From IMG/VR virus record IMGVR_UViG_3300029736_000004: a stretch of 64,000 bases of DNA; one strand, 5' to 3'. Below, piece after piece: positions 6,823 through 10,661 of this stretch. Made by a program: the position numbers and the translations under genes. The notes under the pieces are model-generated. The model was not told where the DNA came from and made no database searches. It saw only the letters and a list, made by a program, of their open reading frames with translations. Positions within the stretch are counted from its first letter, which is position 1. Every line of letters begins with the position of its first letter. The DNA comes from a virus. Its lineage: Duplodnaviria; Heunggongvirae; Uroviricota; Caudoviricetes.

Positions 6823-8520
6823 GTGAACAAGAACATTGAGCCAGCTCGTAAGCGCGAGCGCGAGATTATGAATCGGGCGGCAAGCGTCATGGCTATGACC
6901 GTCGATCCAACCACTGATGCTGCCGGTAACATGATTGCCGACAACGAAGTGATGATGGCTAACCTGGAAAAAGCTATCCAGAAAGAGCCTATGTTTGAAG
7001 GCGTTGAACCAGAAGCAGCTCGCCAGATCATTGGTAGCTGGGCCATGTCTATTCATGAATACAAACGCCAGTATGGGCATTATCCGGCAAGCGATGTATT
7101 AGCCAACGCCCATGTAGCACTTGAGCGCCTGATGATGGAGTCCGCTAAAGAGACTCATGAAGGCGCTGGCAAAGCCATGTTTGAATCAGTAGCCAAGGAC
7201 ATGCGCACCTCCGATGGTGTAATGAAGGTTGCACAATATGCCGCACTGATCCTGCCTGCTTCTCTCGGCGCAGCCACCAGCGACGCATGTACGTTTATCC
7301 CTTGTGATCGTGATGAAACCAATATTTACGAGCTGACCAACGTTGCTGGTACAAAATTCGGTACATTCGAGCAGGGCGATGAACTGAACATGCAGTCTGC
7401 TGGAGTGTATTCGCAGATGAAACGCCTGTACATCCTGACCGAAAAAGGAGATGGCAGCAAAACCACCTTCCAGTTTGATATCCAGAACTTCGAAGGCCAG
7501 GCCTGCCCACTGCGCCAGGGCTACAACAAACTGCTGATTAACCGCAAACCGTCCAAAGTAGATGATGGTGACGGCAACCTGTATTTCAACGACAAAGACG
7601 TCAACGGCAACTCTTTCTCTGTGACGGCAAAGGTTCGATACGATACCGGCGTTATCGATATCACCTTTAATGAAGCACCAGCAGAAGGCACAGAAATCGC
7701 TGTTCAGGTTGAAATCAACATTGAACGCAATCCGAACCTGATACCTGTCATTAACCAGTCCATGCGCAATTACGCCCTGCGCCCGTCGGAGTACGTGATC
7801 GCATCCGAACATACGGTTATGGCTGCATCTGACCTGAGCCGTGAACACGGACTCGAACTGGCAGCATTGCAATTCTCTGCAATGCGCAACTGGATTTCCC
7901 ACGAAATCGATATGATGCGCCTGCGCACTCTGGTATTCCACACCGTTTACGGTCGTGAATTTGATGTGGCACTGCCAGAAGCGCAGAACTACGAGTCGTG
8001 GGTTGGTTTAATTCGCCATGTTGTGAACGCGCTGTCACAGGAGATGGCTGACCGCACCCTGACTACCGGTATCCGTGGTGGCTTTGCTGGTGGCGATGCT
8101 GCTAACTTCCTGCGTTCCTTACCGCCGCAGCACTTCCAGTTGGCACCGGGCTATGTACAGTCGCCGTACATTCAATACATCGGCACCCTGTTTGGTTCCA
8201 TTCGTATCTACGAAGTGCCGAAGCCTATCTGCAAACAATTCCAGAAATATGGCTACGACTTCGGCCTGGACGACATCTATTTCTATGGTCGTGGCGAAGG
8301 CATTGGTAAAGCAGGCCTGGTCGCAGGTGATGCTGTGCCTGCTATTCCGTATGTCCACGAAACAAATCCAGCCCTGGTGAACCGCACCACTTTCTGGGGC
8401 AAAGCAATCAACGATGTGCATCCGCGCAACGGTGAGAACTATTTCACTCGCCTTCGCCTGACACGTTCGAAAGAAGGTGCGATTGACATGTTGAGCGGGC
8501 AAATCAACGAAAAAAAGTAG
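6823..8520 (+). CDS. major capsid protein precursor (putative, P1 gp23-like)
   Basis: 565 aa (~62 kDa), size and position next to sheath/tube genes as in P1 genes 23-22-21; assignment versus sheath not certain. Confidence 0.45.
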   Translation: MNKNIEPARKREREIMNRAASVMAMTVDPTTDAAGNMIADNEVMMANLEKAIQKEPMFEGVEPEAARQIIGSWAMSIHEYKRQYGHYPASDVLANAHVALERLMMESAKETHEGAGKAMFESVAKDMRTSDGVMKVAQYAALILPASLGAATSDACTFIPCDRDETNIYELTNVAGTKFGTFEQGDELNMQSAGVYSQMKRLYILTEKGDGSKTTFQFDIQNFEGQACPLRQGYNKLLINRKPSKVDDGDGNLYFNDKDVNGNSFSVTAKVRYDTGVIDITFNEAPAEGTEIAVQVEINIERNPNLIPVINQSMRNYALRPSEYVIASEHTVMAASDLSREHGLELAALQFSAMRNWISHEIDMMRLRTLVFHTVYGREFDVALPEAQNYESWVGLIRHVVNALSQEMADRTLTTGIRGGFAGGDAANFLRSLPPQHFQLAPGYVQSPYIQYIGTLFGSIRIYEVPKPICKQFQKYGYDFGLDDIYFYGRGEGIGKAGLVAGDAVPAIPYVHETNPALVNRTTFWGKAINDVHPRNGENYFTRLRLTRSKEGAIDMLSGQINEKK

Positions 8521-8661
8521 CAGTGGCGAACGTGTCAGTTTCACCAACGGCAATTGAAGTAAACGAAGGTGAAACTATCGCCGCGAGCACTTCAAAGACA
8601 CGAAAAACACCCAAAAAGAAGTAAAACCAGCCCCTGAATAGGGGGCTATATGGAGGAAAAA

Positions 8662-8940
8662 ATGGCTGATATCAAAGTAACTATTACCCCACCAAATGCG
8701 ACAGATAAAACTTTCACTGTCGAATCCGATCATCCGGAAATTGTGAGAGTTGATGGAACCACATGCACCGCAGTATCTGCTGGTACTGCGGTACTAACCA
8801 TCAAAACTACAGATGGAAATAAAACCGCAACGTGCACTGTAACGGTTAATGAAGCCGTAGTAAGTGTCGACTCTGTCAGCGTTGATCCGTCAACCAAAGA
8901 AGTGACGGTAGGTGACAGCTTCACGGTCGGCGAAGCCTGA
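8662..8940 (+). CDS. Ig-like (Big_2-type) domain protein, probable virion decoration
   Basis: Beta-rich T/V repeats (VTITPPNATDKTFTV...AVLTIKTTDG); GGAGGA SD before ATG 8662 (ORF track start 8650). Confidence 0.45.
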   Translation: MADIKVTITPPNATDKTFTVESDHPEIVRVDGTTCTAVSAGTAVLTIKTTDGNKTATCTVTVNEAVVSVDSVSVDPSTKEVTVGDSFTVGEA

Positions 8941-8944
8941 TAAA

Positions 8945-8976
8945 AGCCTCCCCATGCAAATGGGGAGGCTTCTCTC
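8945..8976 (+). terminator. terminator-like hairpin between Ig-like and sheath genes
   Basis: AGCCTCCCCA-TGCAAA-TGGGGAGGCT stem-loop followed by TCTCTC. Confidence 0.35.
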
Positions 8977-9005
8977 ATCCGCTCGATAAAGAGGAAAAGA
9001 GCAGC

Positions 9006-10661
9006 ATGAATAAAATTGGTTTTTCTGTTGGTCAGGCTGCGGGCGTTGCGGTAGCGGACGTTAATGCCGATGCTACTCTGACTAACACATCTGGCGGTGC
9101 TTCCGTCTTTGCCGGGCTGGTCATTTCCCGCAGAGGGGCGCCAGGTAAGGTTTTGCAGGTTACAGCAGCCAACTATCAGAGCGTGTTAGGTTCACCTCTT
9201 CACCCGCGCACCGGGGCCGCATTTGAACCATATCGCCACGTTGAACGCGCAGTAAAAGGCGGCAGCGGTTATGTGGTTCGCGTATGCGCAAAAGACATGA
9301 AAGTACCGGGCATTGCCGTTTCTGTTCAGGCCAAGTCGAAAAGCACTAAGTCTGCAAAAACTCTGCAAATTGCTCCGACCGAAGCAACGGTAAACATCGG
9401 CGATACACTGACCGTTCGTGCCGTTTCTGGTGCCACTTCTACGGTAACTTTCGCTGCAAGCGAAACACCTGAAATTTCCGGCAGTGAACTGGCTATTTTC
9501 TACATAAAGGACGGTGATGCTTCGACAAACCGCACGTTATCACTGACCCGTGAGGACGAAGAAAATGACCTGTTCACTCTGGAACTGAAAGAGACACAGA
9601 CCGATGGTTCTGTAGAAACTCTGGAAAGCTACCAGGTTTCTTTCGATCCGGATGCAACGAACGATATGGGCCAGCCAGCATGGATTCCTGCGTTGTTAGA
9701 AAGTCAGTCCACCAGGCTTGGAGCTGTACTGGCTGATGGTGCCGAAGACTCCGCTCACTTGCTGACTTTCGAAGATGTAGCGTTTGAAGGCGGTACAGAT
9801 GGCGATCTGTCCTCAATTGACGCTGATGATTATCTGAAAGCGTTAGAGGTTCTCGAAGCGTCAGAAGTTAATTATACCGCGCTGCTTTCTCTGGGCTGCT
9901 ACGACGCATCCGTGCTGGCAAAAATCAATTCGCTGGCAGAAGACGTTCGCGTGGATATGTTCTACGACCTGAAATGTGCTCAGACTGGTGAAAACGCTAT
10001 CGCAGAAGCTAAATCACATGGTTTCGGCAAATCCCACCAGGCTGCACGTTATCACTTCCCGTACTCATGCCGTGACACTTTCAGCGGTATGAATGTGGTT
10101 TACGGAATCAGTTGCGACGCATTTGTGGCAAAAGCGAAAGGCGTTGCGCTTGTGTCTGATGTAGGCGGCTGGCATTACGCCCCGGCTGGTCTGTCTCGCG
10201 CAATCATTGATCGCCAGAACATCACCAGACTCTCCGGGATTGGCACAATCGATCGTGAAGCGTATGTAACCGCTCGTATTAACCCTGTAAGCGTTGCAGC
10301 GGATGGTTCTGTCTACATCGACGACTCCCTGACGACATACAGCAAAAATAACCATCTGCGATTCCAGCACGTTTCATCACTGATGAATGCAATTGCCCGC
10401 AATTTCTATGAAGTTGCTCAGGCAATCAAGCATGAACCTGATGGCGTAACGCAGGAAAGTCTGACTAACGCACTGACAGATCTTCTGGACCGTTTTTATG
10501 CGGCTGGTGCGCTGGTTACACCACGCGATGAATCTCAAGGTTCAGACCCTTATGTGGTCAAGGTAACTCAAAAAGACATCGACTTGTGGGAAGTGGAATG
10601 GTCCGTGTGCCCAACAGGCACTGCTCGTCGAATCCTCGGCAAACCAATCCTGATGCGTTGA
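9006..10661 (+). CDS. tail sheath protein (putative)
   Basis: 551 aa (~57 kDa), acidic, with an Ig-like segment near the N-terminus; followed by tube-like gene; contractile-tail context. Confidence 0.45.
   Translation: MNKIGFSVGQAAGVAVADVNADATLTNTSGGASVFAGLVISRRGAPGKVLQVTAANYQSVLGSPLHPRTGAAFEPYRHVERAVKGGSGYVVRVCAKDMKVPGIAVSVQAKSKSTKSAKTLQIAPTEATVNIGDTLTVRAVSGATSTVTFAASETPEISGSELAIFYIKDGDASTNRTLSLTREDEENDLFTLELKETQTDGSVETLESYQVSFDPDATNDMGQPAWIPALLESQSTRLGAVLADGAEDSAHLLTFEDVAFEGGTDGDLSSIDADDYLKALEVLEASEVNYTALLSLGCYDASVLAKINSLAEDVRVDMFYDLKCAQTGENAIAEAKSHGFGKSHQAARYHFPYSCRDTFSGMNVVYGISCDAFVAKAKGVALVSDVGGWHYAPAGLSRAIIDRQNITRLSGIGTIDREAYVTARINPVSVAADGSVYIDDSLTTYSKNNHLRFQHVSSLMNAIARNFYEVAQAIKHEPDGVTQESLTNALTDLLDRFYAAGALVTPRDESQGSDPYVVKVTQKDIDLWEVEWSVCPTGTARRILGKPILMR

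Follow-up and report, generated by a model that had tools for sequence, protein, structure and literature searches.

The 64,000-nucleotide stretch of viral DNA analyzed here (IMG/VR record IMGVR_UViG_3300029736_000004; hereafter, the window) carries a major capsid protein gene whose 3' end probably functions as a programmed -1 ribosomal frameshift site. Comparison with related sequences suggests that the frameshift is of the type known from the capsid genes of phages T3 and A2, and that it makes a minority of the capsid subunits 35 residues longer than the rest. By its sequence, the region comes from a phage-plasmid that is D6-like and related to P1, and represents its late structural block. 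The product of the capsid open reading frame (ORF), 565 amino acids long, shares 87% identity with its counterpart in Escherichia phage D6, the major capsid protein, and 44% with P1 gp23. The capsid frameshift is newly recognized in D6-like phage-plasmids, and it is unannotated in the records that we examined.

A slippery heptamer in the last codons of the capsid gene

In the capsid frame, positions 8509-8520 read GAA AAA AAG TAG and end the ORF. The elements of the proposed recoding site are as follows, with position 1 being the first nucleotide of the window.

6823 to 8520, + strand: major capsid protein gene, a homologue of P1 gp23; zero-frame ORF of 565 amino acids
8511 to 8517, + strand: slippery heptamer A_AAA_AAG in the X_XXY_YYZ register, read as GA[A AAA AAG] in the zero frame
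8518 to 8520, + strand: zero-frame stop codon TAG, abutting the 3' end of the heptamer
8517 to 8624, + strand: extension ORF in the -1 frame, 35 codons and TAA (8622-8624); the first codon after the slip is GTA at 8517

The original prediction, which was made from the letters of the window alone, had described this end of the capsid gene, a heptamer at 8511-8517 and a 35-codon -1 frame reaching TAA at 8622, and its coordinates and reading are all correct. The extension translates as VAVANVSVSPTAIEVNEGETIAASTSKTRKTPKKK, and the shifted product would therefore have 600 amino acids. An Ig-strand-like part (Ig, immunoglobulin), VAVANVSVSPTAIEVNEGETIAAS, is encoded by positions 8517-8588, and a lysine-rich tail, TSKTRKTPKKK, by positions 8589-8621. 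Peptides predicted for the shifted product are VAVANVSVSPTAIEVNEGETIAASTSK after digestion with trypsin and KKVAVANVSVSPTAIE, which spans the junction, after digestion with Glu-C.

The sequence AAAAAAG occurs 23 times in the window (18.4 +/- 4.1 expected). Four of the 23 copies are in the shift register within an ORF of at least 100 amino acids, and only for the copy at 8511-8517 does the ORF end there while the -1 frame stays open beyond the stop codon. By our own estimate, the chance of a 35-codon open frame is about (61/64)^35 = 0.19. Because AAAAAAG is common and an open frame of this length is not rare, the site is not significant in a single sequence, and the weight of the argument rests on comparison with relatives. 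The same two facts are what would be seen if the extension were an untranslated remnant of an old capsid-Ig fusion and the heptamer a chance pair of Lys-Lys codons. Given what is conserved in the relatives, we regard such a remnant as very improbable.

Conservation of the heptamer and of the extension frame

Related loci were searched with a degenerate pattern that permits every synonymous codon set for Glu-Lys-Lys. All 68 matching copies read GAAAAAAAG, whereas the stop codon that follows the heptamer varies (TGA in 41 copies, TAG in 22 and TAA in 5). Both the heptamer and a -1 frame of 35 codons are retained in 29 related loci, which comprise 18 distinct sequences from three clades, namely those of the window, of E. 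fergusonii/Shigella and of D6. In these clades, the ratio of nonsynonymous to synonymous variation per site (pN/pS) of the extension is, from small counts, 0.3-0.55 in the -1 frame and approximately 1 or more in the other two frames. This pattern shows what appears to be purifying selection on the extension in the -1 frame only.

More distant relatives were drawn from scans of genome, viral and metagenome sequences and from the neighbors of Ig-protein homologues. Five lineages have A_AAA_AAG at this junction, even though the ends of their zero-frame products are not alike; one of these ends is ...INEKK* (asterisk, stop codon), and the other four are listed here with their extensions.

L042 and L165: zero-frame end ...EEEKKSE*; -1 extension VGVTGVSVSSDGQELSEGDSFAIE in L042 (FVIE in L165)
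L167: zero-frame end ...GDEKK*; -1 extension VSVTGISVSQATLECSPGDNVLFVD
L169: zero-frame end ...GEAKKSE*; -1 extension VRVTGVIAEPAENVEVSVGEKLATATKPKATRTKRKEPPQ
L171: zero-frame end ...ETEKKSK*; -1 extension VQVTGISVSPENVEVAAGNTIDTTTKSRKKRK

Each of these distant lineages has A_AAA_AAG exactly at the start of the Ig-strand-like -1 frame; in L042, L165, L169 and L171, the zero-frame stop codon is two codons further downstream. Conservation in relatives, of both the heptamer and the extension frame, was a check that the original prediction had named, and it turned out in favor of the prediction. The heptamer is present in every relative that bears the -1 extension (68/68 copies and the further lineages), and the frame, length and peptide pattern of the extension are preserved across lineages with 70-87% capsid identity. 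Such preservation speaks against an untranslated remnant, as do the bias toward synonymous substitutions in the -1 frame and a heptamer that is invariant while adjacent codons and the stop codon change.

One related IMG/VR locus, L033, has A6 instead of A7 in an A run within the extension's lysine-rich tail, a difference that would alter the last residues. This difference is either a homopolymer sequencing error or a true variant.

The extension as a probable capsid tail

That the segment belongs to the C-terminus of the capsid protein is most clearly indicated by L040/L041, L166 and L172. In these relatives, the homologous segment is joined in frame to the capsid core, without a slippery site (for example, ...GQVNGTSGTVVEGVTLSPASITVSAGDEITAGNTKKDS*). 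Other phages likewise interchange in-frame and frameshifted Ig extensions, and in the T3/A2 class also, relatives may have the extension in frame instead (PMC5009743). Together, the conserved heptamer and frame and these in-frame homologues lend support, at the level of sequence, to the minor extended capsid form that had originally been suggested.

Existing annotations are different. The -1 extension is unannotated in the RefSeq plasmid records examined, and the GenBank record of phage D6 (L001, 4721-4825) lists it as a separate hypothetical gene, orf50, whose ATG overlaps the capsid stop codon. Under this explanation, termination would be followed by reinitiation at an ATG or GTG beside the capsid stop, and the product would be a free peptide of 33-34 amino acids. 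D6-type sequences (AAG TGA TGG or TAA TGG, with the ATG overlapping the stop) are compatible with this scheme, and the window has a GTG at 8523. However, no Shine-Dalgarno sequence lies upstream of this GTG, and the extension contains no ATG, GTG or TTG in L042/L165 and L171 and only one GTG, at codon 16, in L169. These two observations make a separate, reinitiated peptide quite unlikely. Moreover, in L040, L166 and L172 the segment is encoded within the capsid gene itself, and a separate gene leaves the strict conservation of the heptamer unexplained.

A second, independent case of probable frameshifting is seen in relatives of the Rosenbergiella type, whose capsid genes end with G_GGA_AAG followed by TGA or TAG (L014, 4695-4701; L132, 2492-2498). 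A hairpin of 9-13 bp lies 4-6 nt past this heptamer; its stem is identical in both loci and its loop is different (z = -6.3 in L132). The -1 frames encode tails of 71-72 amino acids that are rich in Ala, Lys, Asp and Gln, and these share 80% DNA identity, with all indels being multiples of three. A tail similar to this extension is encoded in frame in L129, and other relatives have low-complexity capsid tails in frame. In the distant capsid homologues P0057 (919 amino acids) and P0077 (897 amino acids), 300-400 extra C-terminal residues are encoded in frame and match Ig_3/I-set or tandem Big_2 domains. P1 has neither a capsid tail extension nor an Ig gene, and the paper on the P1 virion proteome reported no decoration protein. 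Because the tails of relatives are found in frame, frameshifted, as Ig arrays or not at all, the capsid C-terminus in the P1-gp23 family appears to be a variable appendage site that is expressed either fully or via a -1 shift.

Lysine-rich extreme C-termini recur in this family (the window; L013, L020, L045, L129, P0017 and P0057, the last with ...KAKKKTTKTPAKK), whatever precedes them and whether they are in frame or frameshifted.

Proposed mechanism and candidate stimulatory hairpin

We propose that ribosomes on the late capsid mRNA would reach A_AAA_AAG with Lys-tRNAs on AAA and AAG, and that a fraction of them would slip back by one base. The slip would be favored because E. coli tRNA-Lys(UUU) pairs weakly with AAG, because a stop codon is adjacent and, probably, because a hairpin lies 5 nt downstream. 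Bacterial tRNA-Lys(UUU) is known to be highly prone to shifting on AAG (PMC4066793). Slipped ribosomes would read 35 more codons, and one gene would thus give two capsid proteins, the 565-amino-acid major form and the 600-amino-acid minor form.

The original prediction had identified no downstream stimulatory structure. This point needs correction, as a hairpin is predicted just past the heptamer.

8523 to 8584, + strand: candidate frameshift-stimulating hairpin, with an outer stem (8523-8529/8578-8584), an inner stem (8537-8545/8568-8576) and a 5-nt spacer

We consider this structure a candidate stimulator based on its sequence properties. Its minimum free energy is -25.3 kcal/mol (z = -2.8), and two of 200 shuffled sequences fold equally well. 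The 7-bp outer stem is paired in nine of nine distinct relatives, one inner pair is variously AU, GU or GC, and stem columns are less variable than columns elsewhere (3/28 vs 20/55; Fisher p = 0.019). Several observations weigh against a stimulatory role. Covariation had no statistical support against shuffle controls in the nine distinct sequences, which vary little; the hairpin arms also encode conserved residues; and L042-type sequences have no hairpin at the optimal spacing. In each of the remaining heptamer lineages, some hairpin is predicted 4-10 nt downstream of the heptamer. A search of the relatives' alignments for an upstream Shine-Dalgarno-like stimulator, which would have added to the case for frameshifting, found nothing convincing or conserved, and an Rfam search of positions 8300-9100 gave only subthreshold chance matches.

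The same products could arise at the level of transcription. If RNA polymerase added one A on the run of seven A residues at 8510-8516, the result would be a nearly identical protein with one extra Lys. Transcriptional slippage on A runs is a known alternative to frameshifting (PMC5009743), and runs of A6-A7 (GAAAAAAAG or similar) are found in all lineages with A_AAA_AAG. However, L169 has just GCAAAAAAG, a run of A6. In addition, the sister case of L014/L132 uses the non-homopolymeric G_GGA_AAG with a classic hairpin, and the 5-nt spacing of the hairpin in the window suits a ribosomal mechanism; both of these points indicate the ribosome rather than RNA polymerase. Seven A residues are also a short run for the E. 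coli polymerase to slip on efficiently. We therefore consider transcriptional slippage unlikely, and favor programmed frameshifting by the ribosome.

Two other routes were considered and rejected. Stop-codon readthrough fails because the zero frame meets TAA 14 codons on; the Ig-like gene downstream (8662-8940, described below) is in the same frame, but three stop codons intervene. Translational bypass would lead from the final codon of the extension, an AAG with a stop codon and a hairpin after it, to an AAA before the Ig start. It was considered because these Lys codons agree in the window, in D6 and in sequences of the E. fergusonii/Shigella type, as do GAG codons in L042. We rejected it as unlikely, since the codon in L040 (TCC) does not match, chance agreement is probable in the A-rich Shine-Dalgarno spacer that holds the matches, and the Ig gene has a strong Shine-Dalgarno sequence and an ATG of its own.

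A possible Ig fold split among several proteins

The capsid gene is followed by a gene for a small Ig-like protein and then by the tail sheath gene. The extension had been described originally as starting like an Ig-like segment, next to an Ig-like gene, in keeping with appended Ig-like domains. The resemblance and the neighboring gene were upheld, but a complete Ig-like domain was not. The extension corresponds to positions 1-21 of the 79 positions of the Big_2 profile, roughly the first quarter, and has no Pfam match by itself.

As a tentative reading of the sequences, we suggest that the extension represents the A and A' strands of a Big_2 fold, stops shortly after strand B begins and has a lysine-rich end, and that it inserts into the 92-amino-acid Ig-like protein, which is missing those strands. 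The extension might then be a docking strand and not a domain. In this still speculative arrangement, an Ig fold would be split into four pieces, which are the Ig-like protein, the frameshifted capsid subunits, a loop of the tail sheath and the Ig-like protein's own C-terminal copy of the strand segment. The pieces outside the capsid gene are as follows.

8662 to 8940, + strand: Ig-like protein gene, 92 amino acids, with the Shine-Dalgarno sequence GGAGG at 8652-8656; RefSeq relatives annotate a coding sequence of 279 nt
8671 to 8847, + strand: body of the Ig-like protein, matching Big_2 positions 22-79 of the Pfam profile
8848 to 8937, + strand: C-terminal tail of the Ig-like protein, a second Big_2 N-terminal fragment, which matches the profile when joined to the body
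9351 to 9437, + strand: insertion in the tail sheath protein, SAKTLQIAPTEATVNIGDTLTVRAVSGAT, a third Big_2 N-terminal-like fragment, within the sheath gene (9006-10661) and located by sheath alignment

The Ig-like protein matches Big_2 (PF02368) with 28.2-28.8 bits (cut-off, 22.8), and the match covers only profile positions 22-79 of 79. The full 1-79 span needs the Ig body to be joined to the capsid extension, to its own tail or to the sheath insertion. With the first 20 residues of the extension joined to the body, the match extends over positions 1-79 and reaches 35.6 bits, compared with 25.5-30.2 bits for nine composition-matched shuffles; the gain due to the extension is 6-9 bits in the lineages of the window, D6 (8.8 bits) and L040 (6.0 bits). 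This chimera also aligns end to end with the solved Big_2 domains 7quz and 7z47. The Ig-like protein's own last 28 residues, which align with the extension without gaps, give 32.9 bits over positions 2-79 when joined to the body. The sheath insertion joined to the body gives 31.6-33.9 bits over positions 3-79, and in D6, 42.1 bits as opposed to 34.9 bits for the body alone.

Predicted structures point in the same direction. With an alignment of 97 sequences, AlphaFold2 (AF2) modeled the Ig-like protein with a mean predicted local distance difference test score (pLDDT) of 79.9; a shallow alignment gave 57.8 and was uninformative. In a Foldseek comparison, the body of the model superimposes on solved Big_2 domains at 1.3 A across 58-61 columns. 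The tail is predicted with local confidence (pLDDT 85-89), yet it makes no beta-pairing to the body. By profile match and by model, the protein is thus apparently an Ig-like protein without an edge strand, as in donor-strand systems. The same architecture is found in eight further sequences (42-60% identity), which start at strand B and end a few residues past the next G-D/E-x-F/I motif. Although a fragmented Ig fold could also follow from the decay of an old capsid-Ig fusion, the break points are identical in every lineage, which is a further argument against a remnant.

Across the lineages, the Ig gene is always accompanied by the Ig-type extension and the sheath insertion, and neither of these is found apart from it. 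The insertion is present in every lineage with the Ig gene (it is short in L042/L165) and is absent from lineages that do not have this gene. On the other side, all of the Ig-bearing lineages are in one capsid clade, and their co-occurrence may therefore reflect a single ancestral event. Also counting against strand donation, the L042 extension adds only 1.0 bit in the Big_2 chimera, and the L040 sheath insertion adds nothing. Within lineages, the resemblance of the extension to the Ig tail is not in excess of the scores between lineages.

Strand donation would tether the Ig-like protein to a controlled fraction of the capsid subunits, with the rate of frameshifting setting the number of sites on the capsid. 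The sheath insertion and the C-terminal fragment of the Ig-like protein itself would be further strand donors, and the latter would permit head-to-tail chains. L167 has two Ig-like genes after its capsid gene (2238-2444 and 2501-2776), encoding a 68-amino-acid, body-only form without the C-terminal strand fragment and the usual 91-amino-acid form with body and tail. The tail-less form could cap a chain. A literature search found no paper that describes such a split-Ig, strand-donation arrangement.

Comparison with known systems

Capsid frameshifts that append Ig-like extensions have been reviewed (PMC5009743). The site in the window resembles those of T3 gene 10 (10A/10B), Lactobacillus phage A2 and Listeria phages A118, A500 and PSA, in which, as proposed for the window, ribosomes that shift frame close to the 3' end of the capsid gene produce a minor form whose C-terminus is lengthened by Ig-like sequence (PMC5009743). 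Extensions of the T3/A2 class, however, consist of an entire Ig-like domain (in T7, of a peptide that is not Ig-like), whereas here approximately 21 Big_2 residues are followed by a lysine-rich end, and a separate gene encodes the remainder of the fold. The slippery sites differ as well, as X_XX is A_AA in the window and G_GU in T7 gene 10 (PMC5009743).

With respect to the heptamer, the site is similar to those of E. coli dnaX and insertion sequence (IS) elements, which have A_AAA_AAG, the shift-prone tRNA-Lys(UUU) on AAG (PMC4066793) and a hairpin, in the window a predicted one, a few nucleotides downstream. An upstream Shine-Dalgarno-like stimulator, of which none was seen in the window, is additionally present in dnaX. 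Its shift truncates the product, whereas the shift proposed here extends the product, and the zero-frame stop codon here directly follows the heptamer.

Phage phi29 has a BIG2 domain, encoded in frame, at the C-terminus of its capsid protein gp8. Like P0057 and P0077, it thus resembles the present case in carrying Ig-like modules at the capsid C-terminus, which implies that this terminus is a surface site that tolerates appendages. These three proteins differ from the present case in carrying complete domains on every subunit, without recoding and without a split fold.

T4 Hoc, T5 pb10 and N4 gp17 are likewise small Ig-like proteins that are encoded beside head genes and presumably displayed on the virion. 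In contrast to the arrangement suggested here, these bind unmodified capsid protein via a dedicated capsid-binding domain (PMC10385173, PMC5292684), and none of them is reported to need a strand from a frameshifted capsid subunit.

The proposed donation of strands is most like donor-strand complementation in chaperone-usher pili, in which an Ig-like subunit deficient in an edge strand is completed by another polypeptide, and subunits with their own donor could chain head to tail. However, pilus subunits miss the C-terminal G strand and receive an N-terminal extension, whereas the Ig-like protein here is missing the N-terminal A/A' strands, and its putative donors are C-terminal or internal. 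There is also no chaperone or usher and no sequence relationship to pili, and the arrangement here is a prediction from sequences and a modeled structure.

Genomic context and neighboring features

Close copies of the region are found in PLSDB on 121 plasmids from Escherichia, Shigella and Salmonella. Among complete E. coli genomes, 25 of 5,426 have a region of the window type, and it is on a plasmid every time. A second hairpin lies beyond the extension.

8628 to 8648, + strand: GC-rich hairpin (CAGCCCCTGAATAGGGGGCTA) between the extension stop codon and the Ig-like gene, without a T-tract on the + strand

All relatives, including P1, have a hairpin in the corresponding position behind the capsid ORF. 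In T7 gene 10, the CCCC in a terminator located more than 200 nt downstream influences frameshifting (PMC5009743), and a long-range role in frameshifting is therefore conceivable for this hairpin.

Another hairpin, AGCCTCCCCATGCAAATGGGGAGGCT, lies at 8944-8971, after the Ig gene and before the sheath gene. It is not called by a simple terminator scan, and Rfam matches there are subthreshold. Within the capsid protein, residues 259-309 (window positions 7597-7749) weakly match Big_8 (E = 0.093), a possible sign of an inserted Ig-like domain.

Conclusions

The proposed frameshift is of a known kind, that of capsid -1 shifts that add Ig-like sequence, as in T3 and A2, with a heptamer of the dnaX/IS type; it departs from these in appending only a fragment of a fold. 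With this analysis, the widespread phage-plasmids of this group in E. coli, Shigella, Salmonella and Enterobacter gain a well-supported recoding site, whereas their existing annotations skip the extension or treat it as a separate small gene. Because the same capsid tail is found in frame in some relatives and frameshifted in others, the group offers a natural comparison for studying why phages limit the dose of a capsid appendage. D6 is a cultivable phage, and both the frameshift and the split Ig fold are directly testable with it. If the split-Ig reading is true, it would represent a new way of anchoring decoration proteins on heads and tails, a new role for frameshifting in setting the stoichiometry of attachment points, and a case of donor-strand complementation on a phage particle.

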